Positions 24,176-49,978 of a stretch of DNA of 64,000 nucleotides are shown here, piece after piece. How positions within the stretch are numbered: position 1 is the first letter of the stretch; the number at the start of each line of letters is the position of its first letter. The stretch is from Alphaproteobacteria bacterium (GTDB lineage Bacteria; Pseudomonadota; Alphaproteobacteria; MPNO01): the NCBI GenBank assembly GCA_965117055.1, contig OZ220750.1, forward strand, positions 3,501,440-3,565,439, given 5' to 3'. Made by a program: the position numbers and the translations under genes. A model generated the notes under the pieces. It ran no database searches and had not been told where the DNA came from. It saw nothing but the letters and a program-made list of their open reading frames with translations.

Positions 24176-26293
24176 ATGCGCGGCATCGGCGGCAGCACGC
24201 TCCGGGGCGGCCAAACCGTCTTCCACGGCATCCGGATGTGGGGCCAGCTGTTCCAGGCGGCCCTGCTGTTCGCCGCCTTCACGACCGTGGCCGTGCCGGC
24301 CTGGAACCTGTGGCGGTCCACCACGGGGGCGGAATGGTACGCCGCCGGCATGGCGACGCTGGCCGAGGCTAAGCTCGCGCTCGGCTACGACCCGGATTCG
24401 GGCCAGGAGGTCCGGTTCAGGGACGGCACGCGGCGCGTGCTGCGCATCCGCGATGTCGCCGCCTCGGTCCCCGCGCTGGAGGCGCGGGAGCGGATCAAGG
24501 CCGAGATGTTCGCGAGCGCTGGATTCGGGGCTGCGGCCGGAGCCGGGCTGATCGGCCTCTTCCTCGTCGCGTTCTGGGTCCGCGGCGCGCAGCTCGGGCG
24601 CCAGAAGCGGATCCGGGGCGCCGAGATGGTGACGGCCGCCGAGCTCCGCCGCCGCGTGCAGTCGCGCCATCTGCGCACGCTGGCGCGTTTGCCCGGCGGC
24701 AAACGGCTCCGGCCCTACGCCATCGCCGGCATCCCGTATCCGGAACGCACCGAGACCCAGCACACCATCGTCTCGGGCACCACCGGATCGGGCAAGACCG
24801 TGCTGATCTCCGATCTCGTCTCCCAGATCCGCGCCCGTGGCGAGCGCTGCGTCCTCTACGACAAGATGGGCTCCTACACCCGGTCATTCTTCGACCCCTC
24901 CCGCGACGTGCTGATGAACCCGCTCGACGCCCGCGCGCCGCGCTGGTCGCCCTTCCTCGAAGCCCGCGATCCGCGCGACTTCGACATGATGGCCGCCGCG
25001 CTGATCCCGCAGCAGAAGGACACGGTAGACCCGTTCTGGGTGACCGCCGCGCGCCAGCTGTTCTCCAACGGCGCCGGGGTGTTCTGGAAGCAGGGCGTCG
25101 AGGACAACAGGGTCCTGGTCGACCACCTGCTGAAGACCGAGCTCACGGCGCTCGCCGAGGCGATGCAGGGCACGGTCGCCCAGTCCATCGTCGATCCCGA
25201 GAACCCGAAGACCGCGCTCTCGGTCCGCGCCATGCTGACCGCCAACGTCTCGGTGCTGGAGCTCCTGCCGGACAGCGGCAGGCCGTTCTCGATCCGCAAA
25301 TGGATATCGGACGAGGACCGGGACGGGTTCCTGTTCCTCACGTCCAGGGGAGACCAGCATGCCAGCCTGCGCGGGCTGATCTCGACCTGGCTCGAGATCG
25401 CGGTCAACGCGATGCTGTCGCTCGCCCAGGACGAGGGAAGGCGGATCTGGGTGATCCTCGACGAACTGCCCACCCTCCACCAGGTGCCGTCCTTGCAGCC
25501 CGGCCTCGCGGAGTCGCGCCAGTTCGGCGGCTGCTTCGTGCTCGGCGTCCAGGTCGCCTCGGCCCTGCGCGACCTCTACGGGAGGAACGGCGCGGAGACC
25601 ATATCGGGGCTCTGCGGCACGAGGGTGGTTCTGGCCGCGCCCGACCGCGACACCGCGCAATGGTCGGCCGACAGCCTGGGCCGCAGCGAGATCGAGGAGG
25701 TCGCCGAAGGCTATTCCTACGGCGCCAACACGATCCGCGACGGCGTGAGCCTGACCCCGCGGCGCGAGCTGCGCGCCCTGGCGCTGCCCTCCGAGATCAT
25801 GCGGCTCGCCAACCTCGAAGGCTATCTCAAGTTCCCCGGCCCCTTCCCGGTCGCCTCGATCCGCCTTAAATACGCCGCGCGCCCGAAGGCGGCGGAACGG
25901 TTCGTGCCTCGCAAGGGCGACGGGACGGAACCCGGCGAGGCGGCTTCTGCGCCGCAACCCGGGGAAAAAGTCGCGAGGATTCCGGAGACGCCGGTCCCTG
26001 ATGAGGCGCGCCCCGCCGACGATCCCGGCGCGCCCGGCATGCCGCGTGAGCCGAAGGCATGGCAGGGCGAGCTGGACCTTGCGCCCCTGCCGGATGAGGC
26101 CGGAGGAGCCGAGTCCGGACCGGCGGCGAAGGCGGACACCGGGAAAAAGGGCGGCAAGCGCACGGCGGCGAACGGCAAGGCGCCGGCGGCCGAGCCCGGA
26201 CCCGAGGCAGATAACGCGCCATCGGAAGAGGGCCCGGAACCGGCTGATCCGTCGGCCGCCATGGCCGCCGGAGCGAAGCGCGAGTGGTTCTGA
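24176..26293 (+). CDS. traD: Type IV coupling protein TraD/VirD4
   Basis: It has an N-terminal TM pair, a Walker A motif (IVSGTTGSGKT), a Walker B-like motif (WVILDE) and an acidic, low-complexity C-terminal tail. A GAAGGAGAA SD sits 6 nt upstream. Confidence 0.9.
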   Translation: MRGIGGSTLRGGQTVFHGIRMWGQLFQAALLFAAFTTVAVPAWNLWRSTTGAEWYAAGMATLAEAKLALGYDPDSGQEVRFRDGTRRVLRIRDVAASVPALEARERIKAEMFASAGFGAAAGAGLIGLFLVAFWVRGAQLGRQKRIRGAEMVTAAELRRRVQSRHLRTLARLPGGKRLRPYAIAGIPYPERTETQHTIVSGTTGSGKTVLISDLVSQIRARGERCVLYDKMGSYTRSFFDPSRDVLMNPLDARAPRWSPFLEARDPRDFDMMAAALIPQQKDTVDPFWVTAARQLFSNGAGVFWKQGVEDNRVLVDHLLKTELTALAEAMQGTVAQSIVDPENPKTALSVRAMLTANVSVLELLPDSGRPFSIRKWISDEDRDGFLFLTSRGDQHASLRGLISTWLEIAVNAMLSLAQDEGRRIWVILDELPTLHQVPSLQPGLAESRQFGGCFVLGVQVASALRDLYGRNGAETISGLCGTRVVLAAPDRDTAQWSADSLGRSEIEEVAEGYSYGANTIRDGVSLTPRRELRALALPSEIMRLANLEGYLKFPGPFPVASIRLKYAARPKAAERFVPRKGDGTEPGEAASAPQPGEKVARIPETPVPDEARPADDPGAPGMPREPKAWQGELDLAPLPDEAGGAESGPAAKADTGKKGGKRTAANGKAPAAEPGPEADNAPSEEGPEPADPSAAMAAGAKREWF

Positions 26294-26294
26294 C

Positions 26295-29200
26295 ATGCTC
26301 TCGATCGGCGCTCTCTCCTCGGCCGCCCAGGGCGCGTCCTACTACGAGCGCGACGGCTACTACGCGAAGGACGATCCCGAGCACCGGGCGGCCAGCGCCT
26401 GGGCCGGCAGGGGCGCCGGAGAACTCGGACTGGAGGGGCCGGTCGACGCCGACACCTTCCGACAGGTCCTCGAAGGCCGCGTGCCGGACGGCTCCGGGCG
26501 GCAGCTCGGCAAGCGCAGCAAGGACGGCGAGATCCTGCATCGTCCCGGCCGCGACCTCACCTTCTCGGCCCCGAAATCCGTCTCGCTGGCCGCTCTGGTC
26601 GGCGGCGACGACCGGATCGTCGAGGCGCACGACCGCGCTGTGGCCGCGACGCTGGCGTGGATCGAGAAGAACGCAGCCGAGACCCGCATGAAGGACCCGG
26701 ATACCGGGCGCATGATGCGCACGGGCGGCCAGAAGATCGTCGCCGCCACCTTTCGGCACGACACCTCGCGCAACCTGGATCCCCAACTCCACACCCACGC
26801 GGTGCTCGCAAACATGGTCCGGGGCGGGGACGGCAGATGGCGCACGATGGCCAACGAGGGGCTCTATTCGCGCCAGAAGCTGATCGGGATGCTCTACCGC
26901 AGCGAGCTCGCCGCATCGCTGTCGCGCCTCGGCTACGACATCGAGAAGAGCCATGCCGACGGCCGCTTCGAGATCGCCGGCGTGCCGCGCGAAACGGTCG
27001 AAGCCTTCTCGACCCGGCGCGCCGAGATCGAGGCGGCGATGGCGGAACGGAATCTCGGGGACACCGCCGCCAATCCGCGTCTCGCGGAGCGCGCGGCGCT
27101 GATGACGCGCGCGGCGAAGCGCGACATCGACCGCGAGGAGTTGCGCGCCGTCTGGCACCGCCAGGCCGCCAATCTGGGGCTGGACGCGCGGGCGATCGCC
27201 GCGGACGCGATGGAACGGACCGCCGGCCAGGAGGCGCAGCCTGCACCGGTCGCCGCGGATCCCGCCGCCGGCGCCCGGTCCGCCGACCGGACTCCGGATC
27301 GCATGGACGGTCCGTCCGCTGCCGCAGGGCACGATCCGAACGCCGACGCCTCGCCCGAAGCGCCACCCCTGTCGCCCGCGGCGGAGGCCATGGCATGGGC
27401 GATGGCGCATCTCTCGGAGCGCGAGGCGGTGTTCGCCCGCGCCGATCTGCTCGCCGCCGCCCTCTCCCACCGGCCCGGCGCGGTCGCGATCGGCGAGGCC
27501 GAGCGCGAGGCCGCCGCCCTGGAGAAGGCCGGACTGCTGCACGCCGTGAACCTGCCCGGCGCGGAGGACTCGCTCGCGACCGCGAAGACCGTCGGCGAGG
27601 AACGGGAGGCGATCGCCGCGATGCGCGCCGGCGCCGGCCGCGGTGCGGCCCTCATGCGAGGCTGGACGGTACAGGGGCGCCTCAGCGGCGGGCCGCTCAC
27701 CGGGGGGCAGAAGGAGGCCGTGAAGCTGATCCTGTCGGCGAAGGACCGGGTGGTGGGCGTCCAGGGCTACGCCGGCACCGGCAAGACCGCCATGCTCAAC
27801 CGGGCGCGGGCGCTCGCGGAGAAGAAGGACTGGCGGATGATCGGCCTCGCGCCCTCCGCCTCGGCGGCGCAGACGCTCGCCTCGGAGGCCGGGATCGGGA
27901 CCGAGACCCTGCAGAGATTCCTCGCCCGCAACGCCGGGGTGGCCGAGGGGCGGTTGACCGAAGACGGCGCGAAGGCGATGCGCGCCGCCTTCGAGAAGAC
28001 GATCCTGGTGGTCGACGAGGGCTCGCTGGCCTCGACCGTCCAGACCCGCAACCTGCTCCGGATCGCCAACGAAATCCGCATCCCGCGCGTCGTGCTGGTC
28101 GGAGACAGCAAGCAGCTCGACGCGGTCGATGCCGGCAAGCCCTTCGCCCAGCTCCAGGCCGCCGGGATGAAGACCGCGACGATGGACGAGATCGTCCGCC
28201 AGCGCGATCCGGTGCTGAAGGAAGCCGTCGAGGCGAGCCTCAGGGGAGACATCGAGACCGCCTTCGAGAAGCTCGGCGGCAACGTCGCCGAGGTGAAGCC
28301 CGACAATATCGCCGGCGCCGTCGCCGCGCGCTGGCTCGCGCTCTCGCCCGAAGCGCGCGAGAACACCGGCATCATGGCGCCGTCGCACGAGCTCAGGCAG
28401 GCGATCAACGGCCACATCCGCGAGCGCCTGGCGCGCGACGGGACCGTCCACGGGCCCGCGCTACAGGCCGAACGGCTGGTCTCGAAGGGCTACACCAACG
28501 CAGAGAAGGCGCTCGCCGGCAACTACGCGGCCGGCGATGTCGTGGTATTCCACCGGCCCTACAAGCGGCTCGGGGTCGAGAAAGGCGACGAGCGCCGGGT
28601 CGCCGGAGTCGACCACAAGGCCCGGGAAGTGATGCTGGCGGGCGCCGAGGACGGGATCGCGCGCTGGAAGCCGGGCGAGATCGCCGGGCGGAAGGGCGGC
28701 AGCGAGGTTTACCGGACCGAGGACATCGAGCTGCGCGCCGGCGACCGCATCCGCTGGACCCGCAACCATGACGGGCTCGGCATCGTCAACAGCGCCACCG
28801 CGACGGTCGAATCGGTCGCGGGAAACCGCGTGACCTTCGCGCTGGAGGACGGCAGGAAGCTCGAACTCGGGCGCTTCGACCCGCAGCTGCGCCATCTCGA
28901 CCATGCCTGGGCGTCGACCGTGCACGCCTTCCAGGGCCGCACGGTGGACAGGGTGATCGCCGCCATGGAGGCCAAGCACAAGCATCTCACCACCCAGAAG
29001 AGCTTTTACGTCGAGATCAGCCGCGCCCGCGACCGGGCGGAACTGGTCACCGACAACGCCGATGAGCTGAAGGCGCAGCTCGAAGCCGCCACCGGCGAGC
29101 GCATCGCCGCGCTCGAAGGCATCGGCGAGACGACGCGCGGGGAGCCGCAGAAGACGGCGGAGGCCGGTGAGATGCCCGCTTCGGGCCGGGAACACGGTCC

Positions 29201-29309
29201 CGGCGAGGGCGCCGTCAAGGCTCGGGAGGGCACGAAAACGCCCGCGAAAGACCCGGAGATGCCCACGCCGGAACGCGGCCGCGGCGCCGGAATGGACCTC
29301 GGATTGTAG
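26295..29309 (+). CDS. traI: MOBF relaxase-helicase TraI/TrwC
   Basis: The N-terminal relaxase carries the 3-His motif (HDTSRNLDPQLHTHAVLANM). The C-terminal RecD-like helicase carries GYAGTGKT and VVDEGSL. Confidence 0.9.
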   Translation: MLSIGALSSAAQGASYYERDGYYAKDDPEHRAASAWAGRGAGELGLEGPVDADTFRQVLEGRVPDGSGRQLGKRSKDGEILHRPGRDLTFSAPKSVSLAALVGGDDRIVEAHDRAVAATLAWIEKNAAETRMKDPDTGRMMRTGGQKIVAATFRHDTSRNLDPQLHTHAVLANMVRGGDGRWRTMANEGLYSRQKLIGMLYRSELAASLSRLGYDIEKSHADGRFEIAGVPRETVEAFSTRRAEIEAAMAERNLGDTAANPRLAERAALMTRAAKRDIDREELRAVWHRQAANLGLDARAIAADAMERTAGQEAQPAPVAADPAAGARSADRTPDRMDGPSAAAGHDPNADASPEAPPLSPAAEAMAWAMAHLSEREAVFARADLLAAALSHRPGAVAIGEAEREAAALEKAGLLHAVNLPGAEDSLATAKTVGEEREAIAAMRAGAGRGAALMRGWTVQGRLSGGPLTGGQKEAVKLILSAKDRVVGVQGYAGTGKTAMLNRARALAEKKDWRMIGLAPSASAAQTLASEAGIGTETLQRFLARNAGVAEGRLTEDGAKAMRAAFEKTILVVDEGSLASTVQTRNLLRIANEIRIPRVVLVGDSKQLDAVDAGKPFAQLQAAGMKTATMDEIVRQRDPVLKEAVEASLRGDIETAFEKLGGNVAEVKPDNIAGAVAARWLALSPEARENTGIMAPSHELRQAINGHIRERLARDGTVHGPALQAERLVSKGYTNAEKALAGNYAAGDVVVFHRPYKRLGVEKGDERRVAGVDHKAREVMLAGAEDGIARWKPGEIAGRKGGSEVYRTEDIELRAGDRIRWTRNHDGLGIVNSATATVESVAGNRVTFALEDGRKLELGRFDPQLRHLDHAWASTVHAFQGRTVDRVIAAMEAKHKHLTTQKSFYVEISRARDRAELVTDNADELKAQLEAATGERIAALEGIGETTRGEPQKTAEAGEMPASGREHGPGEGAVKAREGTKTPAKDPEMPTPERGRGAGMDLGL

Positions 29310-29392: not shown

Positions 29393-29770
29393 ATGGACGA
29401 AAGGCAGCCAGAAACCGCCCCGGCCGGGGCCGGCGGGACGGAGAAACGCAACCCGCATTCGATCCGGTTCCACGATCCGGAGTGGGAGCGGATCGAGGCC
29501 GTGGCCGAACAGCGCGGCCTGACCGGCCCGGAGTTCGTCCGCTTCGCCGCGCTGGCGGCGGTGGCGGACGGTCCGCCCGCCGGCGCGGCGGCCGACCGGA
29601 TGGCGCCCTTGATCGAGCGGACCTTCCGCGCGGCCCATATCCTGGTGTCTAAACTGCGCCACGACATGCTCGACGAAGGCTGCGAGGCGGAGTTGGACGC
29701 GCTGATCGCCGGCGCCCAAGGGCACCAGGACGACCTGCTGGGCGGCGGTCCGGACGGGGAAGACCGGTAG
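29393..29770 (+). CDS. Hypothetical small protein downstream of the relaxase, possibly a relaxosome accessory protein or regulator
   Basis: It is 125 aa with reasonable codon usage. It has no recognisable motif beyond a helical N-terminal region. Confidence 0.4.
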   Translation: MDERQPETAPAGAGGTEKRNPHSIRFHDPEWERIEAVAEQRGLTGPEFVRFAALAAVADGPPAGAAADRMAPLIERTFRAAHILVSKLRHDMLDEGCEAELDALIAGAQGHQDDLLGGGPDGEDR

Positions 29771-30506
29771 ACGAAGACCGTCCCCGCGGTCGCCGGCCGG
29801 GCGACTTCGGGCCAACCGCCGCTCTTCCGGTCCGCCCGGAAAGAGCGATTCGCCGGCGTTTCGGGCGCTTCTCCAGAGAATTGCGCATCGGTCAGGACGG
29901 TTCTCCAGAGAACCGCGCCCCGAAAAAGCACGCGATTCCAACCAGTTCTCCGCAGTTCTCCGGAGCATCGACTCGCTCCAACAAGACACGGGCAGTGGAA
30001 GGTGCCCAAAGGCGCCCCGAGGCACGCAAAATGCATGCTCCACGCGCGCATGCGCCCTCTTGCAGCCCGCTGCGTGGGGTGTGACCCCGAAGCCCGCCCC
30101 GGCGGGTCGGAAGCCTGATTTGCGCTGAACGGGGGATCGGGAAATCGACGCCGGGGAACCCGGCGGAGGGGAGCCGCCGCGGCGATTGAGCGGACGGCTC
30201 TGCGGAGCGCACTGTGCGAGGCAGTGCCGGACGACGTGCAGGCGGGCTCCGCAGGAGCGCCTGCACGAGTGCCGCGAGCGATGCGAGCGGCGGCCGGTGC
30301 ACCCATGCGCAGCATGGTGCAGCGGCGCGTGATGCGGCAGCGGAATGCAACCGCGATCGGCGAAGCCGGAGCGGGCCGAGCGAAGCGAGGCGGCGAGCGC
30401 GGCGCGAAGCGCGCGCGAGGATGCGGTGGCCGCGTCTCCGATGTGCGCACGCGGAAACGGGCCGCGCCGCCGCCGGAGCGACGACGCGGCCCGCGATGCG
30501 CTGCGG
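29771..30506 (+). promoter_or_regulatory. Repeat-rich non-coding region (candidate oriT / operator region)
   Basis: Two copies of the palindrome TTCTCCAGAGAA lie 36 bp apart, with a related TTCTCCGCAGTTCTCCGGAG. A GCGCATGCGC palindrome follows. About 730 bp has no credible ORF. Confidence 0.4.
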
Positions 30507-31433
30507 TCAGGCCGCGACGCGCTGGACGGGGATGCCGAGCTGCCGCGCCTTGTCGACGAGGTTCTCGGTGATGCCGGAGCCGGGGAACGCGATGACGCCC
30601 TTCGGCAGGAGGTTGAGCAGTTCGTCGTTGCGGCGGAACGGGGCGGCGCGACCGTGGCGGTCCCAGTCCGGCTTGCAGACGACCTGGTGGACGCCGTTGC
30701 GCTCTGCCCAGCTTGCCGCGATCTTCTCGACGCCGGGGCCGCCGCCGTGGACGAGCACCATGTCGGCGTACTTCTCGCGGGCCTTGTCGAGCCGGGCGAT
30801 GACCGCCGCCGGGTTGGCGATGTCCTTGCCGCCGGCGATGGCGACGAGGGTGCCCTGCGGCAGGTGGGCCTGCGTCTTGCGGTCCTTCCGTGCGCGCTGG
30901 TAGTCGCGGGCGTCGATGGCTGCCGAGGTGAGCTTGCCGGTCTGCGACGTGTGCGATCCGCGCCGGGGCCGCCAGACGTTGCCGGTCTCGCTGCGGTAGG
31001 CGTCGGCGGCCTCGTCGCGCAGGATCTCGAAGGCGTCGCGCCGCGCGGTGAGGTTCTGTGCGCGGTCGGTGACCAGCTCCAGCTCGCGCGACTTGATCTC
31101 GGTGCCGTCCTGGGCGCGCTGGAGGTCGCGGAGGTCCGGCATCAGCTTGTCGGCGGCGCGGTCCAGCCTCTGGGTCTGGCTGTCGAGGCAGTTGACGAAG
31201 CCCCAGAGCAGGCTCTCGCGTTCGTCGGCGAGCTGGAACCCGTCCGGTCCGACGCCCTCGGCCAGGATGCGGAACGCCTCGCTCACGGCGTCCAGCGCAT
31301 CGTCGCGGTCCCAGACGTCGCGGCTGTCGAACTCGTCGCGCTCGGGGGTCGCGCCGAACAGCGCCGCGTGCTCGCAGACTGTCGCGGTGACGGACTGTCC
31401 GCCGTTCTCGATGGTGTCGATATCGAAGGTCAT
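30507..31433 (-). CDS. SLOG-superfamily (DUF2493-like) protein
   Basis: The C-terminal Rossmann-like core reads GTLVAIAGGKDIAN...VLVHGGGPGVEKIAASWAERNGVHQVV...VIAFPGSGITENLVDKARQLGIPV. The N-terminal ~170 aa is a charged, coiled extension. Confidence 0.6.
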   Translation of the reverse strand: MTFDIDTIENGGQSVTATVCEHAALFGATPERDEFDSRDVWDRDDALDAVSEAFRILAEGVGPDGFQLADERESLLWGFVNCLDSQTQRLDRAADKLMPDLRDLQRAQDGTEIKSRELELVTDRAQNLTARRDAFEILRDEAADAYRSETGNVWRPRRGSHTSQTGKLTSAAIDARDYQRARKDRKTQAHLPQGTLVAIAGGKDIANPAAVIARLDKAREKYADMVLVHGGGPGVEKIAASWAERNGVHQVVCKPDWDRHGRAAPFRRNDELLNLLPKGVIAFPGSGITENLVDKARQLGIPVQRVAA

Positions 31434-31439
31434 GTCGAT

Positions 31440-31975
31440 CTCCCTTGATCGGTTTCACGTTCGGGGCCGATCCCCGTTGTGATGTCCTGTTGGGGCACGC
31501 GCGCACAGGGCGAGCACCTGGCCCTAGAAGGTCTTGGGCGGAGTTGGTGCGGAAAGTTGCCGAACTTGGTGCGGAAGATCGCTCCGCGATCTTCACGGTC
31601 GGCAACTTTCACGGTCCGCCCTAGAGCTTCTTGGGTCAGGCCGCAGGGAGCGCAGCGACCGGAGGACCCTTCAGGGTTGCTGGCCCGAGCACGTGTGACA
31701 CAATTGGACAGCACAGCGGGGTGGCGTATCTCTCTCCACCTGCACGGACCCCATCGGCGTTGCCGCCTGGCGCGGCGTCCGAAAGGAACCGCCGGCCTGA
31801 CAGCCTTCCCTGCCAAGCGAAGCGCGGAGCGAGCTTGCGAGCGGAGGCGATAGGGATAGGAGCGGTTATCGGAGGGAGCGCCAGCGACCGGAGATTTGAG
31901 CGGATAGCCCGGGCCGAAGGCATCGCCCAAAACGCCTGCCCCATTCGATGCGTTGCGATTGACAGACATGGCCGT
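31440..31975 (+). promoter_or_regulatory. Non-coding region with nested inverted and direct repeats (candidate ssDNA promoter / oriT-proximal structure)
   Basis: An outer inverted repeat (AAAGTTGCCGA ... TCGGCAACTTT) encloses an inner palindrome (GAAGATCGC TCC GCGATCTTC). Direct repeats CCCTAGAAGGTCTTGGG / CCCTAGAGCTTCTTGGG and TTGGTGCGGAA (x2) are also present. Confidence 0.4.
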
Positions 31976-32203
31976 TCAACCCCAGAGCGGATGCGAGAGA
32001 ACCCGTTGCTCGGCCACCTCCCGGATCCGGTTGCGGTCATGGACGCGGCAGGGACCGCGCGGGTCCTCGTCGAGGTGCACCACGAAATACCGCGCGCCTT
32101 CGCGGAGCGGATCGTCGAGCGCGTAGACGTCGCCCACATGATCGCCATCCCAGAGAATGCGCGACGCGTCCGGGGCGATGCGGCGGAAGGCGACGCCGCT
32201 CAT
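31976..32203 (-). CDS. Small hypothetical protein translationally coupled to the DUF4326 gene
   Basis: It is about 75 aa (MSGVAFRRIAPDASRILWDGDHVGDVYALDDPLREGARYFVVHLDEDPRG...) and overlaps the upstream stop by 4 nt. Confidence 0.3.
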   Translation of the reverse strand: MSGVAFRRIAPDASRILWDGDHVGDVYALDDPLREGARYFVVHLDEDPRGPCRVHDRNRIREVAEQRVLSHPLWG

Positions 32204-32535
32204 GACGCGCCCCTGTCCGCCAGCTGCCGCGATGCCCAGGCCGCCGCGTGGGCGAGCACATGCCCGTGACAGGGCAGCGGATCGCACCAGCACGCGAGCC
32301 AGCATCCGTCCAGCACGGCGAGCTCCTCCAGCGAGACCTCGCCCGCGCGGATGCGGCGCCAGAGATCCGCACGGTAGCGCGCGATGGCCTGCTCGCGGTC
32401 CTGGCCCTTGCCGATCCTGAACGGGTTGCCCCACCGGGTGCGGCGGTCGATCAGCACGGTGTTGTCTACGACCTGCGCATATTCGAACTCCTCGCGCAGC
32501 CTGGGTTCGGTCCTCAGATTGACGACGGCGTCCAT
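32200..32535 (-). CDS. DUF4326 domain protein
   Basis: It is 111 aa with RWGNPFRIG and WLACWCDPLPCHGHVL motifs characteristic of DUF4326. Confidence 0.65.
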   Translation of the reverse strand: MDAVVNLRTEPRLREEFEYAQVVDNTVLIDRRTRWGNPFRIGKGQDREQAIARYRADLWRRIRAGEVSLEELAVLDGCWLACWCDPLPCHGHVLAHAAAWASRQLADRGAS

Positions 32536-33599
32536 GTTCTCCCTCCACTCCTCGGGTCGGCTTGCCCGACCCCTCGCTCTCCTCTTCCTCCCGCGCAGCG
32601 GAACAGCGGCGCGAAGCGGGCGCGGAGCGCCGCTGAGCCGAGCGCGACCAGGTCGTCGTTGAAGTCGTTGCCTGCGGGCACGACGACGGTGGCGGCGACG
32701 CCCGCCCGCGCGCAGCGCCGGGCGAGGCGTTCGGCCGCGAGCGCGCCGTCCTCGTCGTTGTCCCGCGCGATCACCAGGCGCGCGACGCCGGGCGGCGGCG
32801 CGAACGCGCCGAGGCTCCCGGCGGAGAGCGCGGCGGCGGCCGTGATCTCAGGCACGGCGGTGACCAGCGAGAGCACGGTCTCGATACCCTCGCCGACGAC
32901 GAGCGCAGCGTCGTCGGCGGGAACGCCGAAGCGCACCGCGAAGCCGTAGATGCGGCCGAGCGCCTTGCGCGGATCGGCGACGCCCGCCTTGGCGGGCCGG
33001 CGCGGATCGAGCCAGGTGCGCTGCACGCCGAAGATCCGGCCGCCGTCGCCGGTGACGGCGGCGACCAGCGCGGGAAACCGGCGCACGGTCGAGCCTTCGC
33101 GATAGCGAAGCTCGGGATGGAAGCGCAGCGCCGCGAAGCGGCAGCGCGACAGACCCCGCGCCTGGAGATAGCGTTCGGCATGGCTGCCGTCGACCGCGCG
33201 GCAGCGCCGCCAGAGGCGGCGCGCGGCCTCGGTCGCGTCGTAAGGCGGGTCCGGCGTCTTTGCCGGTGACGCCCCCGGAACGCAGTCCGGGGCAAGCGGC
33301 AAGGCGAGGAAGCGCCGCGCCTCGTCGAGCGCCGCGCGCAGCGTCGGCGCGTTGATGCGGTAGCGGATCAGGTCGAGCAGGTCGCCGTGCTCGCCGGTCG
33401 CTGCGTCGGTCCACTTTCCCGGCTTGCCGGAGCCGGAGAGTCGCACGAACAGCGAGCGACCGCGAGCGCCGCCGAGGTCGCCGCAGATCCAGTAGCGGCC
33501 GAGCCGGCGGCCGTTCGGCAGATAGCGCCGGCAGACGTCCTCGGCGCGCGCGGCGAGCGCCGCGGCGATGGCGGCGGCGGGAGACGGGCCGTGCTGCAT
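32514..33599 (-). CDS. Toprim-domain primase-like protein (DUF7146/Toprim)
   Basis: The N-terminus reads CRRYLPNGRRLGRYWICGDLGGARGRSLFVRLSGSGKPGKWTDAATGEHGDLLDLI. The C-terminal toprim region reads ALVVGEGIETVLSL ... ARDNDEDGA. A strong SD (GAAGGAGG) precedes the ATG at 33599. Confidence 0.7.
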   Translation of the reverse strand: MQHGPSPAAAIAAALAARAEDVCRRYLPNGRRLGRYWICGDLGGARGRSLFVRLSGSGKPGKWTDAATGEHGDLLDLIRYRINAPTLRAALDEARRFLALPLAPDCVPGASPAKTPDPPYDATEAARRLWRRCRAVDGSHAERYLQARGLSRCRFAALRFHPELRYREGSTVRRFPALVAAVTGDGGRIFGVQRTWLDPRRPAKAGVADPRKALGRIYGFAVRFGVPADDAALVVGEGIETVLSLVTAVPEITAAAALSAGSLGAFAPPPGVARLVIARDNDEDGALAAERLARRCARAGVAATVVVPAGNDFNDDLVALGSAALRARFAPLFRCAGGRGERGVGQADPRSGGRTWTPSSI

Positions 33600-33739
33600 A
33601 TGGGACCTCCTTCGAGCCATGCGGGACGCCCGATACCGGCCGGCCTCCGCCTCCTGGCGGAGCCAGGAAGCGAGCGCCCCGAGCGAAGCGCGGGCGCGAG
33701 GCCGGGCCGGCAGGCCCGAGGCCGGCGGCCATGCGCCGG

Positions 33740-34291
33740 TCAGGCGCTTGGCGGATCGGCAAGCCGGCCGACATCGATCCGGCCGGTCCAGGCGGCGGTC
33801 CGCGAAGCGGGATCGCCGTCGCGGAGCTGCCGGCGCAGCTCCATCCAGAGCCGCCCCAGCACGTTCTTGCCGCGGTAGCTGTCGCCGGCGGGCTTGGCGC
33901 CCCACCAGTCGTCGCGGGTCGAGACCTCGACGATCGGCCGGTCGCCGCTGCGCGCCAGCGCGGCGTCGATCGCGGCGGCATTGGCCTCGCGCTTCATGCG
34001 CAGCACCCAGCGCATCGCGTTCACGCGTTGCGCGTTCCAGTCCGGGTTCAAGCCTGCCGCCGTGCCGCGCCCGATGGCGGCTGCCTCGCGCGCCGTAGGC
34101 GCGCAGGCGATCCGGCGCTGCACGTCTGGGGCGGCGGCGAACTTGGCCGCCTGGTACAGGTGCTCGGACGTTGCAAACGTCCACGGGCCGGCGGCGATCG
34201 GCGCCGCCAGCGGGGCGAAGTTGCTGAACTCGCCCCACGCTTCGCGGGTGAAGCGAAACGGGCAGACCTCGTCGCGGTTGTAGACACGCAT
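33740..34291 (-). CDS. NADAR (YbiA-like) family protein
   Basis: GEFSNFA, TSEHLYQAAKF, DWWG and GKNVLGRLWMELR motifs match the YbiA/NADAR fold closely. Confidence 0.75.
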   Translation of the reverse strand: MRVYNRDEVCPFRFTREAWGEFSNFAPLAAPIAAGPWTFATSEHLYQAAKFAAAPDVQRRIACAPTAREAAAIGRGTAAGLNPDWNAQRVNAMRWVLRMKREANAAAIDAALARSGDRPIVEVSTRDDWWGAKPAGDSYRGKNVLGRLWMELRRQLRDGDPASRTAAWTGRIDVGRLADPPSA

Positions 34292-34381
34292 GCCGTCATC
34301 CTCCGTTGGCGGGCGGCGGGCTCCCTCGGCGCCGCCGCGATTCGACCGCGCGTAAGCGCACCTCCACTCCTGAGGGGCCGC

Positions 34382-34837
34382 CTACCGGCCGGTAGGCTCG
34401 TGGATGAGGATGGAGACCGCCTCGCAGGGCGCGAGGCGGGCGACCAGCAGGGAGCGGACGTCGGGCCAGGGCAGGCCGCCCAGGCCGCATCCGAGCGGCG
34501 GAACCGCGACGGAGCGGATGGTGCGGCGAGCGAGGATGCCGGCGAGATCGTCGAGGCCGGCGGCGATGTCCTCGATGCGGCTGCGGTCGCGCCAGTGGCG
34601 CTTGGTCGGGAAGTTGACGACGAAGCGCGGCAACCCGGCGCCGGCGTCGAAGACGAAGCAGCGCCCGGGCCGGACCTCCCGGCGCGCGCAGGCGTCCCGG
34701 TAGCCCTCGAAGTTGGCCGGGAAGCGGTGCCTGAACTGGAGGGCGAGGCCCTTGCCCATCACGCCGACGCAGTTGACGGGATTGACGAGGGCCTCGCAGC
34801 CGGAGGCGAAGAGGTCGCCCTGAACGAAACGGATCAT
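34382..34837 (-). CDS. Macro domain protein (ADP-ribose binding/processing)
   Basis: It starts MIRFVQGDLFASGCEALVNPVNCVGVMGKGLALQF..., with the Macro signature N..N..G.MG.G.A..F. It is 151 aa. Confidence 0.7.
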   Translation of the reverse strand: MIRFVQGDLFASGCEALVNPVNCVGVMGKGLALQFRHRFPANFEGYRDACARREVRPGRCFVFDAGAGLPRFVVNFPTKRHWRDRSRIEDIAAGLDDLAGILARRTIRSVAVPPLGCGLGGLPWPDVRSLLVARLAPCEAVSILIHEPTGR

Positions 34838-34887
34838 GACGCAGCTCCTGTCGAGAGAAGATCGAGACAAGACCGGCTCCGCCCGGC

Positions 34888-35472
34888 TCACGGGCGGCCG
34901 CCGGCGGGTGCGAGCGTCCGGAAGGTGGCCGAGAGGCGCGTCGCGGCCTGGCCGGCAGTGTCGGCGCGGTCGATGCCGTGCATCCACGCCGAGCGCGCGC
35001 GGCCCGCGAGGACGAGGAGCGAGCGGCGGGGGAGCACCGCCACCTCGTCGCCCGGCAGCCCGTCGCGGGCGTAGGGGCGCACCGAGCGCGGACGGAAGCG
35101 CATCGGCCAGTCGGCGGCGAGCGACAGGGAGGCCACCACGGGCCCGAAGTCCCGGTGGTCGGCGTGCATGCCGATGCCTTGGCCCGGTCGGTACTCGTTG
35201 ACGATGCACTGCACTGGAAGCGCCCCGCCGAAGTGTTCCCGCAGCCGGTCCGCCATCGCGTCAGCCCACCGCGGGAACGGCGTAGCCGGAACCGGGCGGC
35301 TGGCGCCCCGGTAGTCGTAGCGGTAGCCGTAGTGCTGCACGCGGCGACTGAGCTCGGTCATCCAGGGCGCCTGGGCGATGCGGAGCAGGATGCGCTCCTC
35401 CTCGGCCGGGGTGACGAAATCGGGGACGATGACGGCCCCCTGGGCGAAGACGCTCTCGGTGTCGCCGGTCAT
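34888..35472 (-). CDS. alkB: AlkB-like 2OG-Fe(II) dioxygenase (DNA/RNA dealkylation repair)
   Basis: It carries the HxD...H facial triad (MHADHRDF ... WMHGI) and R..S.T.R near the C-terminus. It is 194 aa. Confidence 0.8.
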   Translation of the reverse strand: MTGDTESVFAQGAVIVPDFVTPAEEERILLRIAQAPWMTELSRRVQHYGYRYDYRGASRPVPATPFPRWADAMADRLREHFGGALPVQCIVNEYRPGQGIGMHADHRDFGPVVASLSLAADWPMRFRPRSVRPYARDGLPGDEVAVLPRRSLLVLAGRARSAWMHGIDRADTAGQAATRLSATFRTLAPAGGRP

Positions 35473-35630
35473 GCTCTCTCTCCTCGCAAGTGCGAACGCC
35501 CCTTCCAGCGCTTCTCCCGAACTCCGGCGCCGGGATGGGGAAGAAAAGCTCCGGCCCGTCAGCAGAAAAAAGGGGACCGACGCCGAAGCGCCGGCCCCCG
35601 AGGCGGGAGGGAGGGACGATGACGGGCCGT

Positions 35631-36086
35631 TTAAAACGGGATTTCGTCATCCAGATCCGCGGGCGCCGAGGCCGGCACGGACCTGGTGTCGCCCGCCATG
35701 TCCGGGTCGGGCTGCATCTGCGAGCCGTTGCCGTTCGGCTTGTCGAGGAACTGCACCCGGCCGCCCGGGACCAGCAGGATCTCGGTCGAGAAGCGGTCGC
35801 CGTCCTCGCCGGGCTTCGACCAGCGCCGGGTCTGGAGCTTGCCGTCGACGTAGACCAGGCGGCCCTTGGTAGCGTGCTTCTCGAACATGTCGATCAGCCC
35901 GTCCTGGAAGGTGACGACCCGGTGCCACTCGGTCTTGTCGACCTTCTCGCCGGTCTGCCGGTTGATGTACGACTCGTCGGTCGCGATGCTCAGGTTGGCC
36001 ACGCGGCCGCCCGAGGTGAGGTGGTTGACGGTGACGTCGCCGCCGAGGCGGCCGATCAGCTGCACCTTGTTCAATCCGAATGCCAT
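35631..36086 (-). CDS. ssb: Single-stranded DNA-binding protein SSB
   Basis: It has an OB-fold N-terminus (LNKVQLIGRLGGD...TEWHRVVTF), a Gly-rich linker and the canonical acidic tail DLDDEIPF. Confidence 0.9.
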   Translation of the reverse strand: MAFGLNKVQLIGRLGGDVTVNHLTSGGRVANLSIATDESYINRQTGEKVDKTEWHRVVTFQDGLIDMFEKHATKGRLVYVDGKLQTRRWSKPGEDGDRFSTEILLVPGGRVQFLDKPNGNGSQMQPDPDMAGDTRSVPASAPADLDDEIPF

Positions 36087-36197
36087 GACGATTCCCCTTC
36101 ATGGACGAGTTGATGACGATGGGTTCCGAACGACCGGAGGCCGGGTCCTACTCCCCCGAACCCCCGACCGTTCAATCTCTTCAAGCCCTCCTCCCCT

Positions 36198-36449
36198 CTA
36201 TTCCGCCGGGGAGAGCGACGACGCCGGGTCCCAGGGTTCCGCCGGCGCCGCCTCGTGCAGCGCGTGCCCGAACGCCGGTTCCGGGTAGAGGCTCGCGAAG
36301 CCGTGTTCGGGATAGACCGCGCCCCGGTCGGGACAGCGGATGGCCCGCTCGTCCTCGGCGATCTCGCGGACGGTGCGGCGATCGACCCCGATTTCGGTCA
36401 GCAAATCGCTGCCAATCGGAAGGTCGAGGGATGTATCGGGACGAAACAT
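36198..36449 (-). CDS. Small hypothetical protein
   Basis: It is 83 aa with an AGGAGA SD upstream of the ATG. No motif was recognised. Confidence 0.3.
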   Translation of the reverse strand: MFRPDTSLDLPIGSDLLTEIGVDRRTVREIAEDERAIRCPDRGAVYPEHGFASLYPEPAFGHALHEAAPAEPWDPASSLSPAE

Positions 36450-36551
36450 GGGCGGGATCTCCTCTGGCCGTTGCCCTGCCCGGCATCGGCGCGGAGAAAC
36501 CACTCCCTCCGGCCTGCCGGACACTCGCCCGACAGGCGCTCTCCTCCTGCT

Positions 36552-37088
36552 CTACGGTGAAGGGACGGCGCGGCGGATCGCGGCCAGGCGCTCGCACACG
36601 GGCCGCAGCGTCATCGCTCCCAGGTTGAACACCGGGATGCCGCGGTCCTCGGCGATACGGATGCCCATGCCGGTGCCGCCCACCGCCTCGCCGCGTTCGC
36701 TCCACGCAACGACCGCATCGACCGGCCGGTCCAGCCCCTCCCCCAGCAGGATCGCGACGTTCCTCGCATGCAGCTTGCGGACGGCCGGCGAACACCGCTC
36801 CCACGCCGGATGCAGGGGCGCCGCGATCGCGATGCAGGCCGCCAGCTCAGCCGCCGACAGCACCCGGCAGTCCGGCCCGCCATGCCCGTTGTAGCCCCGC
36901 CACGGTAGCCAGATCGCCCGCTGATCCGCCGGCGCTCCCCTGGCAAACGCGCTGTCGGCCCCGTCCGCCCCGCCGCTCGACAGATGCCAGCCGGTCCGGG
37001 CCAGCCATCCCGCCATCACCGTCATGTCCGCCAACACGGCTGCCGGTGTCGCCCGCGCGCCGATACCTGCGTAGATCAATGTCGCCAT
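36552..37088 (-). CDS. SLOG/DprA-LOG-like Rossmann-fold protein
   Basis: It reads IYAGIGARATP...SGGADGADSAFARGA...IAEDRGIPVFNL, resembling DprA/LOG-type SLOG domains. Confidence 0.5.
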   Translation of the reverse strand: MATLIYAGIGARATPAAVLADMTVMAGWLARTGWHLSSGGADGADSAFARGAPADQRAIWLPWRGYNGHGGPDCRVLSAAELAACIAIAAPLHPAWERCSPAVRKLHARNVAILLGEGLDRPVDAVVAWSERGEAVGGTGMGIRIAEDRGIPVFNLGAMTLRPVCERLAAIRRAVPSP

Positions 37089-37212: not shown

Positions 37213-37620
37213 GTGCATCGCTACGGCATGGACGGGCGCGGATGGATCGGACGGCACGGGTTCTGGCCGCTGGCGCTGCTCTGGCTGCCGGCCGGGATCG
37301 TCGCGCAGGCGGCGGTGCGGTTCGGGCCGGAGGCGCTCGCCGAGGGCACGCTGGGTCCTTGGCTGGCGGCGATGGCGATGGAGGGGCTGTCGCTGGCGCC
37401 GCTCGTGCCCTGCGGCCTGCCGCTCGCGCTCGGCTGCCGCCGCCTTTGGCGGCTCGGCTACCGGCGCGCGGCCTGGATGGCGGGTTTCGGGCTGGGCATA
37501 ACGACAATCCCGGTGGCGGTGTTCGCGGGGCTGCTCGGACCGCTCGCCCTCACGGCCGGGGCCGTGGTTCTAGGCCTGCCGGTCTGGATGGCTTGGTGGT
37601 GGCTCGTGCGGAGGGGCTGA
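37213..37620 (+). CDS. Hypothetical small membrane protein
   Basis: It is 135 aa with three or four predicted TM helices. It is the only + strand ORF here, and GC-bias artefact cannot be excluded. Confidence 0.3.
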   Translation: MHRYGMDGRGWIGRHGFWPLALLWLPAGIVAQAAVRFGPEALAEGTLGPWLAAMAMEGLSLAPLVPCGLPLALGCRRLWRLGYRRAAWMAGFGLGITTIPVAVFAGLLGPLALTAGAVVLGLPVWMAWWWLVRRG

Positions 37621-37808: not shown

Positions 37809-38672
37809 TTATCGGCGCCGCTTCTTCCCCGGCCAGGGGAGGATGCCGTCCAGCTCGGCAAGGAGCGGGTCTTCGTCCTCTACCTCACGCCCTTCATGCT
37901 GTAGAGGAGGCACCTCTTCATCCTCGAACCAGAGCAGCGTGAGCGTCTGATCCCACGACTTTAGATATCGAGCTTCCTCCAAGACCGTGCCACCCCGGCG
38001 CCAATCGCTGAACCACACGTCGGCAGCTACTTCGTCCGGCCCTGTTTCCTTGCCGCCTGTACGTAGAGCGGCGGACAAGGTTTGTGGTGGAGTCTGCATT
38101 CGGGGCGGAATCCAGGCTCCCGCATCGCGCAGCGAATTCGACCGAGACGCGTATCGCACAACGCCCTTTTCGGAGAGAACGAAGGCGCATGGAGCATCCA
38201 TCACCGTCGCATAACGGGAACCCGTCGCGGTGGTCGATGCAATGAAACGACTCGCAAGCTCGTCGATTGCCATGAATCCGATCTGTTCGTCCCTTACCAA
38301 GGGCTCGAACAACTGCTTCGGCAGCAGCAACTCCGCCGCGAAAACGTCACAGAGAACCTCGTTCTTCGGGCGCCTGGCATAGCTCCACCATGGCATCGAG
38401 GAGTGGTCGGACGGCAGCCCCAAGACGATGTGTGCGATCTCGTGACAGGCGGTGAACCGCCTGCGCTCCTCGCTGTCCTTTTCGTTGACGCAGATAAAGT
38501 GCTTGCCCTTGTTCTCGAACGAGTAACCGGGCTCGTCGTCCGGTAGGTCCGGCTCGTGACGAATGACCCCGCCGATGTGCTTTGCATAAGCCCTGACGCA
38601 CGGTGGAAGTCCGGGAGATCCGGCTTCACGCACGAAGTTCCGAGCGCGGAGGACGACCGAGAATTCATCCAT
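37809..38672 (-). CDS. ImmA/IrrE-family (DUF955) metallopeptidase, CapP-like
   Basis: It carries the HEIAH zinc motif (TACHEIAHIVLG) and is 287 aa. It overlaps the XRE gene by 8 nt. Confidence 0.8.
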   Translation of the reverse strand: MDEFSVVLRARNFVREAGSPGLPPCVRAYAKHIGGVIRHEPDLPDDEPGYSFENKGKHFICVNEKDSEERRRFTACHEIAHIVLGLPSDHSSMPWWSYARRPKNEVLCDVFAAELLLPKQLFEPLVRDEQIGFMAIDELASRFIASTTATGSRYATVMDAPCAFVLSEKGVVRYASRSNSLRDAGAWIPPRMQTPPQTLSAALRTGGKETGPDEVAADVWFSDWRRGGTVLEEARYLKSWDQTLTLLWFEDEEVPPLQHEGREVEDEDPLLAELDGILPWPGKKRRR

Positions 38673-39057
38673 TGCCGTTCTCTTCCGACAGGATTCTGCG
38701 CACCCTGGCAAGCAGCTGCGCATAGTTGGGCCGGGCGCCGCCTCGGAACGCTGCGCCGGCTGCGGCCGCGAACTCGTCATAGGTCACGGTCGGATCGTTC
38801 AGCGCCTCGGCCACCAGGTCATCGGCGGTCTCGGGGTGGGCGGCAAGGAAGCGGAGCATTTCGGTCTCGCGTCGGTCGGCCTTGAGCGCGCGGATGAGCC
38901 TGACGAGCACATCCTCCGAGGGCGCCCCCTTTTCCCCCTGCTCGAGCCGATAGATATAGGCATGGTCCGTTTGAGCGAGTTGACCGAGCTCCCGCAGCGA
39001 CAGCCCCCGTCGCTCCCGCAGGAGCCGGAGTAAAAACCCCAGCCCGTTTTTTTTCAT
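38665..39057 (-). CDS. XRE-family helix-turn-helix repressor, ImmR/CapH-like
   Basis: The HTH reads LRLLRERRGLSLRELGQLAQTDHAYIYRLEQG. It is 130 aa and lies directly upstream of the ImmA gene. Confidence 0.8.
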   Translation of the reverse strand: MKKNGLGFLLRLLRERRGLSLRELGQLAQTDHAYIYRLEQGEKGAPSEDVLVRLIRALKADRRETEMLRFLAAHPETADDLVAEALNDPTVTYDEFAAAAGAAFRGGARPNYAQLLARVRRILSEENGNG

Positions 39058-39261
39058 GCCGGCCCCATTGACATCGGTCGTGTGACTCCTTATCTGTTGT
39101 CTGAGTGAGCAACAGTGCCCGATTTTCCGGTCACGGACTTGGATCGGCCGTTGAGAATCCTGGACACCATGTTGTCGTCATAGACAACCGGGTCGCGGAT
39201 GGCAATGGGCGAATGCAGAAGCCCACGGCTGAATTTCGGGCCAACCGAGAAAGGAAATGGC
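39058..39261 (+). promoter_or_regulatory. Divergent promoter/operator region between the XRE gene and the ubiquitin-like operon
   Basis: A 200-bp gap separates the two divergent transcription units. AT-richer stretches (TGACATCGGTCGTGTGACTCCTTATCTGTTGTCTGAGTGAGCAACAGTG) contain a short palindrome. Confidence 0.4.
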
Positions 39262-39783: not shown

Positions 39784-39787
39784 TCGC

Positions 39788-40748: not shown

Positions 40749-40753
40749 TAGGC

Positions 40754-48163: not shown

Positions 48164-48166
48164 GGC

Positions 48167-49605: not shown

Positions 49606-49680
49606 CCGAATAGCATTACCCGCATTGGCGGCGGTTTGTCACGCTTGTTCCTTAAATGTTCCCATGCCACCCTGCACGCC

Positions 49681-49947: not shown

Positions 49948-49978
49948 AGCCGGGCTGCGGTGGCGGGAGCGAGCACGC

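Follow-up and report, generated by a model that had tools for sequence, protein, structure and literature searches.

Predicted ADP-ribose erasers and single-stranded DNA proteins in the putative leading region of an alphaproteobacterial F-type conjugative element

What is the function of a gene cluster in which two enzymes of the type that removes ADP-ribose from nucleic acid bases are encoded beside single-stranded DNA (ssDNA) proteins, facing a conjugative transfer operon? This question is raised by positions 30507-37088 of a 64,000-nucleotide stretch of genomic DNA from an Alphaproteobacteria bacterium (assembly GCA_965117055.1, contig OZ220750.1, positions 3,501,440 to 3,565,439; this whole stretch is referred to as the window). 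The block consists of ten co-oriented open reading frames (ORFs) on the minus strand, convergent with a relaxase gene, that encode a macrodomain protein (Macro), a NADAR protein, an AlkB-like dioxygenase, an ssDNA-binding protein (SSB), a Toprim primase-like protein, a DUF4326 protein, two SLOG-fold proteins and two small proteins. Sequence evidence supports placing this block in the leading region of an F-type (TraI/TrwC, MOB_F-like), probably integrative, conjugative element, of which it would form the proximal 7 kb. Its most credible role, held with some confidence and no certainty, is that of an establishment and counter-defence module for the incoming single strand, equipped with orphan ADP-ribose erasers; the functions of the individual enzymes are inferred from their relatives. 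The window has a G+C content of ~72%, and its closest named relatives are Defluviicoccus-like Alphaproteobacteria. Loci for comparison were collected with an alignment of macro homologues, by which a single genome of each species was scanned; this yielded 80 loci, referred to here by L numbers.

The position of the block is anchored by a predicted origin of transfer (oriT). An F-type transfer operon occupies ~6.9-29.3 kb on the plus strand and encodes TraE, TraC, TraH, TraG_N, a TrwB/TraD coupling protein and a TrwC-type relaxase-helicase. The last gene of this operon (26001..29309, plus strand) encodes the TraI-type relaxase-helicase, with Pfam domains TrwC, AAA_30 and UvrD_C, and its product shares 69% identity with the relaxase of the related locus L003. 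Between the relaxase gene and the first gene of the cluster the plus strand carries the sequence GCAGCCCGCTGCGTGGGGTGTGACCCC. Here, the predicted oriT core (30062..30083, plus strand) is formed by an inverted repeat, GCAGC-CC-GCTGC, followed by GCGTGGGGTGT^G. The sequence GCGTGGGGTGTG (30072-30083, plus strand) is an exact 12-nt match to the nic core of the F plasmid, 5'-TTTGCGTGGGGTGT^GG, in which ^ denotes the cleavage site (PMC2504302). One such match is present in the 64-kb window, against 0.02 expected, and it is located just after the short inverted repeat in a block conserved among relatives, 424 nt ahead of the first cluster gene. A one-base variant, GCGTCGGGTGTG, occurs once in each of seven relatives (L003, L009, L010, L011, L013, L014 and L016), always at a distance of a few hundred nucleotides beyond the stop codon of the gene for a YAcAr-domain protein, the counterpart of the first gene of the block, and on the strand opposite to the array. 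In L003 the variant keeps this place even with an insertion sequence (IS) element and a toxin-antitoxin pair intervening between it and the relaxase gene.

Cleavage is predicted between positions 30082 and 30083 of the plus strand, within the sequence 5'-GCAGCCCGCTGCGTGGGGTGT^GACCCCGAAG and immediately after GTGT, which makes the plus strand the predicted transferred strand. If the relaxase cuts in the manner of F TraI, the DNA to the right of 30083 would therefore be the first to enter the recipient. With nic on the plus strand and all ten ORFs on the minus strand, the incoming strand would be the template for all ten, as in the leading-region layout in which the transferred strand serves as the template for genes (PMC11541004). 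Arrays of the same kind (Toprim ... SSB, AlkB-like, Macro, SSB, SSB) are found in a distant family of elements (L005, L007, L008, L018, L019 and L038) and also point at the intergenic region adjoining the TraI gene, which is there co-directional with the array; orientation of the array toward the oriT-side region is in this way seen in two different element families. The leading-region assignment, proposed in the preliminary description of this DNA, is thus well supported by a nic-core match that is conserved in seven relatives and has the expected strand and location, with the relaxase gene on one side and the cluster on the other. The 12-nt nic core is identical to that of F, however the F oriT is located upstream of the tra operon, whereas the oriT predicted here comes after traI and is followed by a leading region of convergent orientation.

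Two further features adjoin the predicted nic site. A gene for a 125-aa protein (29393..29770, plus strand) follows the relaxase gene; the product has no Pfam match, reads as RHH-like from its sequence alone and may be a relaxosome accessory protein, and its homologues adjoin the relaxase gene in L009, L010, L013 and L016. Between this gene and the predicted nic is a cluster of TTCTCC half-sites (29869..29962) comprising the palindromes TTCTCCAGAGAA (29869-29880) and GGTTCTCCAGAGAACC (29899-29914) and two copies of the direct repeat CAGTTCTCCG (29943-29962), which probably represent the oriT binding sites of relaxosome accessory proteins.

The first gene of the block to enter the recipient would be that encoding a 308-aa protein with a predicted helical N-terminal half and a C-terminal YAcAr/DUF2493 SLOG domain (30507..31433, minus strand; Pfam 3e-23). 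This family is large, with 2266 homologues, the best 120 of which are 78-94% identical; the AF2 model of the protein, with a pLDDT of 58, was too poor for a fold search. The preliminary description placed a repeat region beside this gene. Searches of 31434-31975 for tandem and direct repeats, TRF among them, revealed no real repeat, and the feature was therefore renamed a hairpin; what stands of the earlier claim is a long imperfect inverted repeat of ~250 nt on the transferred strand (31471..31723, plus strand), recognised by its fold, covariation and strand bias. After correction for G+C content, this hairpin is the strongest DNA-fold outlier of the 64-kb window (z -5.7), with z-scores of -4.8 to -7.1 against shuffles. 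Counterpart hairpins, belonging to two unrelated sequence families, precede the YAcAr homologue in L003, L004, L009, L010, L011, L013, L014, L016, L062, L079 and L080, and the two YAcAr paralogues present in each of L009 and L010 all have a hairpin of their own.

Selection on the structure is indicated by an alignment of six type-A hairpins, in which 27 of 74 pairs show compensatory changes and paired cells make up 89.6%, a share that falls to 35-45% once the partners are slid by 1-3 columns; covariation as high as that observed was reached in none of 500 shuffles. The predicted transferred strand accommodates 50 G.T pairs and its complement three, and with DNA parameters all 13 of 13 hairpins are more stable by 9-20 kcal/mol as the transferred strand than as the mRNA-sense strand. 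This strand-specific stability speaks against an mRNA leader and points to a role in single-stranded DNA; it is also evidence for the assignment of the transferred strand that does not depend on the nic motif. The distal arm of the window hairpin contains TTGCTG (31677-31682)-N16-CACAAT (31699-31704), a weak match to the -35 and -10 promoter hexamers (4/6 and 4/6), and that of the relatives contains TTGGCG-N16-CACAAT or TTGCGG-N16-TGTAAT, each hexamer agreeing at just 4-5 of 6 positions. The hexamers lie within the stem, in a geometry fit to read into the YAcAr gene, and a consensus promoter scan of 29.3-37.7 kb found no sigma-70 site. The hairpin is accordingly described as a candidate single-strand promoter of the Frpo/ssi type, for the YAcAr gene only. 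Like Frpo of F, it is a long hairpin specific to the transferred strand, with -35/-10-like hexamers inside the stem and a position upstream of a leading gene; it differs in that the hexamers match at 4/6 and 4/6 and in that it precedes a SLOG gene and not ssb or psiB. This likeness is one of architecture. No Rfam family matched the hairpin at the gathering threshold, and an E-value search returned a chance match resembling a miRNA precursor (E 0.4).

The first predicted eraser, Macro (34382..34834, minus strand; 150 aa; Pfam Macro, E 2e-21), has its best PDB matches in the DarG macrodomains of T. aquaticus (5m31, 6e-46) and M. tuberculosis (5m3i, 3e-42) and is ~55-60% identical to bona fide DarG macrodomains. 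The NCBIfam DarG equivalog NF048014 is matched over its N-terminal positions 1-150, with 221 bits against a full-length cut-off of 250, and PADLOC labels the protein DarG (2e-66). An invariant Asn21 and the Lys78 of a PTK motif are found in all 34 aligned homologues, the lysine being presumably the catalytic residue of DarG. Identity with the phage protein AdfM is 35% (E 8e-25), and Asn21 aligns with the asparagine that was mutated in AdfM, an enzyme that removes DarT2 marks and is less active upon this mutation (PMC13309987). The C-terminal DarT-binding domain of DarG (full length ~340 aa) is missing from Macro, no DarG_C match occurs in any array locus, and a profile of 40 DarT (DUF4433) sequences gave no match at E <= 10 anywhere in the 64-kb window. 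Stand-alone proteins of ~151 aa form a large family, most of the best 120 of 5865 homologues being 149-170 aa long. Macro is thus unambiguously, by sequence, a DarG-type hydrolase domain without a toxin partner, and the relation to DarG noted in the preliminary description is borne out by PDB, NCBIfam and PADLOC alike. It is homologous to the hydrolase domain of DarG2, however the window has neither DarT nor the toxin-binding domain of DarG and hence no toxin-antitoxin pair of the DarTG2 kind; by sequence, it is of the same type as AdfM, a toxin-less, single-domain ADP-ribosylglycohydrolase on an invading element.

The second predicted eraser is a stand-alone NADAR protein of 183 aa, YbiA/DS-32B-like (33740..34291, minus strand; Pfam NADAR 2e-22, with the domain starting at residue 17). 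By sequence its only match in the PDB is YbiA (3e-17). TIGR02464 scores above its cut-off, and the best NCBIfam match, below cut-off, is NF053876 (DS32_2; 1e-40), which represents the NADAR component of DS-32, an anti-phage system of two genes. The active-site Glu and Lys are present, TSEHLYQAAKF aligning with SEH...QKF of YbiA; the corresponding NADAR residues are E88 and K95 (PMC11543638). DarT1 modifies guanine and DarT2 thymidine (PMC11543638, PMC11125620), and the preliminary description, in which guanine ADP-ribosylation was called the DarT2-type modification, had swapped these labels. All NADAR subtypes tested hydrolyse guanosine-ADP-ribose and not thymidine-ADP-ribose, with subtype-specific protection in vivo (PMC11125620), and some hydrolyse cytidine-ADP-ribose as well (PMC12945103). 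The window protein shares the NADAR fold and the conserved Glu and Lys with DarG1 of DarTG1, but lacks the N-terminal extension of DarT1-linked NADARs and a DarT1 partner, no ADP-ribosyltransferase (ART) gene being adjacent.

The third enzyme is an AlkB-like Fe(II)/2-oxoglutarate dioxygenase of 194 aa (34888..35472, minus strand; Pfam 2OG-FeII_Oxy_2, 7e-23). Its best PDB matches are ALKBH8 and ALKBH6; the motifs H-A-D and W-M-H-G align with the metal ligands of ALKBH8 (HxD...H), and the RxxxxxR motif is present as RLSATFR. The AlkB equivalogs are failed by a wide span, with 22 bits against a cut-off of 267 for NF011930 and 19 against 231 for TIGR00568.

Proteins predicted to handle ssDNA accompany these enzymes. 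The SSB (35631..36086, minus strand; Pfam 1e-23; TIGR00621 above cut-off) ends in ...DLDDEIPF, and a 355-aa protein with DUF7146 and Toprim_3 domains (32514..33581, minus strand; Pfam 1e-33 and 1e-22) carries the DaN-acidic motif NDFNDD, which marks DnaG-like primases of conjugative elements (PMC5512222); it is predicted to be such a primase. Both the DDEIPF tail and the primase-like domains had been read correctly in the preliminary description, as had the presence of two SLOG proteins at the flanks of the set, one of which, the YAcAr protein, is identified by Pfam and the other by its model. This second protein, orf178 (36552..37088, minus strand; 178 aa), belongs to an abundant uncharacterised family. 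Its fold was modelled because a profile search against PDB sequences found nothing, and the model shows a Rossmannoid fold of the SLOG (DprA/LOG-like) type whose likeness to LOG, the ThsA SLOG domain and the MoCo carrier equals or exceeds that to DprA. The DUF4326 protein (32200..32535, minus strand; 111 aa; Pfam 1e-22) represents a rhodanese-phosphatase-like domain that is fused to Macro, NADAR and SLOG in viruses (PMC9503650).

Comparison among the 80 macro loci indicates that this association is a recurrent one. They comprise 59 canonical DarT-DarG operons, 18 toxin-less arrays and three isolated genes. Within 10 kb of the 18 toxin-less macros, SSB and Toprim were found at 15 loci each, AlkB-like, YAcAr and orf178 genes at 13 each, and NADAR and DUF4326 at nine each; these seven were found at none of the 59 DarTG loci. 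In a neighbour-joining tree, drawn with no bootstrap, the array macros form a single clade apart from the DarG macros and sister to them. A protein of 1540 aa in L021 fuses Macro (residues 2-148, 58% identical to its window counterpart), the orf178 SLOG (794-967, 64%) and NADAR (1002-1168, 57%), along with helical repeats. At this locus (6712-16142), with a serine recombinase gene upstream, a 1040-aa protein with two YAcAr modules is encoded first, then the fusion protein and then Toprim, and the arrangement in L023 is similar. Such a Rosetta-stone fusion is good evidence that Macro, SLOG and NADAR work together, and it hints at delivery as a protein, within the framework of polyvalent proteins. 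The Toprim_3 primase with its DaN-acidic motif and the multi-domain protein of L021 are features shared with polyvalent proteins (PMC5512222) and the transferred primases TraC1/Sog, but in the window the domains are encoded by separate genes, and Macro, SLOG and AlkB are not named in the main text of that study.

Linkage of this kind does not extend to a single transcription unit. The preliminary description spoke of eleven nearly gap-free genes; the block holds ten ORFs, two of them small and without a known domain, and gaps between its genes span 27-158 nt, commonly 90-158 nt, with a single gap of 542 nt (31434-31975). The small genes are orf75 (31976..32203, minus strand), whose start overlaps the DUF4326 stop codon (ATGA) and whose homologues are present in nine of the 18 toxin-less arrays, and orf108 (36198..36449, minus strand), the product of which is probably 83 aa from an internal ATG although the ORF extends to 36524, with homologues of 70-83 aa in the same position in L003 and L004. 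Co-directionality on the minus strand and the named domains are confirmed, the latter by Pfam for seven proteins (E 1e-21 to 1e-33). A hairpin and T-run resembling an intrinsic terminator follows ssb (35572..35599, minus strand), and NADAR precedes the AlkB-like/Macro pair in some relatives and follows it in others. The ten-gene block is not a single operon because of this terminator-like site, the gaps of 90-158 and 542 nt and the shifting position of NADAR, which speak against the earlier notion of a coordinated system in so far as it meant one transcription unit; functional linkage is still backed by conserved synteny and by the L021 fusion. As for the element as a whole, a megablast search against PLSDB found no close plasmid, and the 178-aa SLOG protein is 100% identical to a protein encoded on a 4.79-Mb contig, which suggests that the element is located in the chromosome, in integrated form.

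In the mechanism proposed for an establishment module, the relaxase would nick the plus strand at 30082^30083, as the sequence supports, and the strand would enter 5' end first, bringing in the YAcAr gene, the hairpin and then the remaining cluster within its first 7 kb. The hairpin at 31471-31723 would fold on the incoming strand, and its structure suggests that RNA polymerase could transcribe the YAcAr gene from ssDNA, as at Frpo in F. SSB would cover the strand and the Toprim primase would prime the complementary strand, judging from their homologues. On the model of characterised relatives, the orphan DarG-type macrodomain would remove ADP-ribose from thymidine in ssDNA, NADAR would remove it from guanine and possibly cytidine, and the AlkB-like dioxygenase would remove some N-linked base adduct. 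Together with an SRAP/YedK protein encoded further along the array (48913-49638, minus strand), the erasers may keep the strand replicable despite ssDNA base-modifying enzymes of the host or of a competitor, which could be of the DarT2, DarT1 or pierisin type, perhaps also of the DS-32 type. They would act like the phage proteins AdfM and AdfN, being made after local second-strand synthesis or delivered from the donor as protein. As far as is known, DarT, AlkB-family and SRAP enzymes all prefer ssDNA, and SRAP therefore fits the theme of the module. In phages, an orphan NADAR (AdfN, anti-DarTG1; PMC11825919) and an orphan macrodomain (AdfM, anti-DarTG2; PMC13309987) defeat DarTG, and leading regions are enriched in orphan antitoxins and SSB (PMC11541004).

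A number of observations weigh against a counter-defence role. We know of no demonstration that DarT restricts conjugation, and in an uninfected recipient DarT is restrained by its own antitoxin; no paper tying DarG to plasmid leading regions was found in the literature searched. The terminator-like site after ssb splits the block. No hairpin or promoter-like site was found upstream of the Macro, NADAR, AlkB-like, SSB and orf178 genes, which leaves the YAcAr gene as the only plausible candidate for early expression from ssDNA. The DarT2 target TNTC is not depleted on the transferred strand, a result, from tests of TNTC, TTTW and TCTC, that is uninformative. The oxygenase is AlkB-like and not an AlkB orthologue: of the earlier claim of an AlkB that removes 1-meA and 3-meC, the fold and the residues stand, but the orthology does not, and repair of these lesions is a guess because the protein fails the AlkB models and is nearer to ALKBH8 and ALKBH6. 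The NADAR, which the preliminary description had tied to a DarT-type modification, has DS-32B and YbiA as its nearest curated families and not DarG1 or the DarT1-linked NADARs, its subtype being assigned tentatively, and YbiA-type and phage NADARs gave no in vivo rescue from DarT1 (PMC11125620). Finally, the two SLOG proteins and DUF4326 beside the erasers also fit an action on soluble signals.

This last alternative, in which the module degrades soluble immune signals or toxic metabolites derived from NAD+ or ADP-ribose (e.g., cyclic ADP-ribose isomers, of the TIR/Thoeris type) and has no part in DNA repair, is unlikely, but carries the most weight among the other explanations. On this view such molecules would be cleaved at different bonds, one for each of Macro, NADAR, both SLOG proteins and DUF4326. 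Macro, NADAR, SLOG and DUF4326 co-occur or are fused in phages and giant viruses, where soluble ADP-ribose derivatives are the predicted substrates (Iyer et al. 2022, PMC9503650; Iyer et al. 2021, PMC7824862), and the window contains all five proteins of this kind, three of which are fused in L021. The likeness of the orf178 model to LOG, the ThsA SLOG domain and the MoCo carrier points in the same direction, and the presence of two SLOG proteins and DUF4326 is better explained by soluble substrates than by protection of DNA. The viral neighbourhoods share with the element the clustering of these four families and the fusion seen in L021, however they belong to phages and giant viruses and to soluble signals, whereas the cluster described here lies in a leading region among ssDNA proteins and has a DarG-type macrodomain. 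The identity of ~55-60% between this macrodomain and enzymes with a known substrate, thymidine-ADP-ribose in ssDNA, and the position of its clade as sister to DarG argue for a substrate in DNA, as do its most faithful neighbours, the SSB, primase and AlkB-like enzyme of ssDNA metabolism, and the occurrence in the same array of SRAP, a protein of abasic sites in ssDNA.

These same neighbours would suit a housekeeping role, with repair of lesions, whether spontaneous or chemical in origin, and support of rolling-circle and second-strand synthesis on the ssDNA intermediates of the element itself, in donor as well as recipient, and no specific link to defence. SSB, primase, the AlkB-like enzyme, SRAP and RadC are general ssDNA and repair functions, no promoter logic links the erasers to early entry, and the undepleted TNTC motifs agree with such a role. 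It is nevertheless a poor candidate, since ADP-ribosylated bases are, as far as we know, made only by dedicated toxins, and spontaneous damage is for this reason a poor explanation of two ADP-ribose erasers. The location right after nic and the strict orientation moreover match the establishment and anti-defence pattern of PMC11541004. Slightly less credible still is competition between elements or bacteria, in which the erasers would neutralise DarT addiction modules of resident plasmids or islands, or DNA-ADP-ribosylating effectors delivered by neighbouring cells, and not defences aimed at the entering strand. Anti-addiction and orphan-immunity roles have been put forward for stand-alone NADARs (PMC11825919) and for the orphan antitoxins of leading regions (PMC11541004), and the window and its relatives hold other toxin-antitoxin and defence cassettes in the same array; but this explanation, for which DarTG offers no experimental example, leaves both the nic-adjacent position and the tight linkage to the SSB, primase and AlkB-like genes unaccounted for. 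That Macro is simply a decayed DarTG remnant without a function of its own is highly improbable: the absence of a DarG C-terminal domain and of a DarT partner would suit a remnant, but the protein belongs to a large stand-alone family with invariant catalytic positions and to a monophyletic clade whose neighbours are conserved across diverged elements, and the idea was rejected on this conservation and clade structure.

The establishment and counter-defence module favoured here has its nearest counterpart in the anti-defence islands of leading regions (Samuel et al. 2024, PMC11541004). Like these, the block directly adjoins oriT on the side that would enter first, its genes would be read from the transferred strand, and it has an SSB, orphan antitoxin-like genes, a putative methylase-helicase further along and a hairpin with promoter-like hexamers. 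The main text of that study does not include Macro, NADAR, AlkB-like, YAcAr, DUF4326 or DarT, a search of its supplementary files found only a 'Thoeris ThsA Macro' family, and the host here differs in being a 72% G+C alphaproteobacterium. Pfam families of the ArdA, PsiB and anti-CRISPR types were found in none of the 31 window proteins scanned. With respect to phage AdfM and AdfN, the carrier is a conjugative element and the two enzyme types are encoded next to each other, in the company of an AlkB-like enzyme and SLOG proteins, and the NADAR, unlike AdfN, is of the YbiA/DS-32B type. The gene set with its toxin-less erasers thus probably carries a phage counter-defence strategy into conjugation, although the principle itself is not new.

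Several other features of the non-coding DNA were recorded. A block at 31812..31930 is 92% identical to L004 and 87% identical to L003, and has no strand-specific fold and no Rfam family. The motif [G/C]CC[G/A]AGCGAAGCG[A/C]GG occurs in intergenic stretches of the cluster at 30375, 31812 and 33678 (plus strand); its four matches in the window against 1.0 expected, equalled in 3 of 100 shuffles, are marginal. A second fold outlier at ~42.66-42.82 kb was set aside, as it is not a long hairpin and has a weak strand bias.

Beyond the block, a hydrophobic 135-aa ORF without a family (37213-37620, plus strand), recognised from the sequence, runs against the orientation of the array and is conserved in place in L003, L004, L012-L014 and L016. 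It is followed by a defence cassette within the leading array (37809-42157), with a G+C content of ~62% against 72% elsewhere, in which a CapP (M78 peptidase)/CapH (HTH) pair on the minus strand adjoins a complete BilA-BilB-BilC-BilD set on the plus strand (PADLOC 2e-39 to 3e-131), a ubiquitin-like anti-phage system; in L003 and L004 the same slot is occupied by a HigB/Gp49-HTH toxin-antitoxin pair. The co-oriented minus-strand array then continues for ~20 kb (42797-57784) with genes encoding a Strawberry-notch-type helicase (42797-47518), SRAP, RadC (50443-51225), a ParB-like protein of 918 aa (53501-56257) and a DUF2201 metallopeptidase/VWA protein (56378-57784), all on the minus strand, as well as several family-less proteins. 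At the right end of the window, where the G+C content falls (59833-62989), a PAPS-reductase-like gene, possibly of the DndC type, and DndB (5e-118) suggest a DNA phosphorothioation system. At the left end, upstream of traE, a giant fn3/Calx-beta/cadherin-like protein (2-4936) may be a surface adhesin of the element, and a similar giant protein adjoins the leading array of the distant relative L008 (1-4459).

If Macro and NADAR protect incoming DNA, DarT-type ADP-ribosylation of ssDNA would be a barrier to the transfer of plasmids and integrative conjugative elements and not to phages alone, and conjugative elements would rely on an orphan-antitoxin strategy demonstrated in phages as recently as 2025-2026. 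The division of macro loci into 59 DarTG operons and 18 toxin-less arrays would offer a simple rule for telling defensive from counter-defensive copies of DarG. A bolder and rather improbable proposal is that YAcAr with its hairpin, the orphan macrodomain and its most constant neighbour, the AlkB-like dioxygenase, constitute an unrecognised establishment system built around ADP-ribose chemistry on ssDNA, in which the AlkB-like enzyme would oxidise off N-linked base adducts, ribosyl or otherwise bulky, that resist the hydrolases, the SLOG proteins would sense or cleave nucleotide-derived products, and the enzymes would be delivered as proteins, in keeping with the 1540-aa fusions of relatives; were this true, ADP-ribosylation of incoming ssDNA would be a significant and undescribed barrier to conjugation. 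For this poorly studied and very G+C-rich group of bacteria, the locus yields a predicted nic site, a candidate single-strand promoter and two abundant SLOG families at the start of the transferred DNA, all of which are open to experimental testing.

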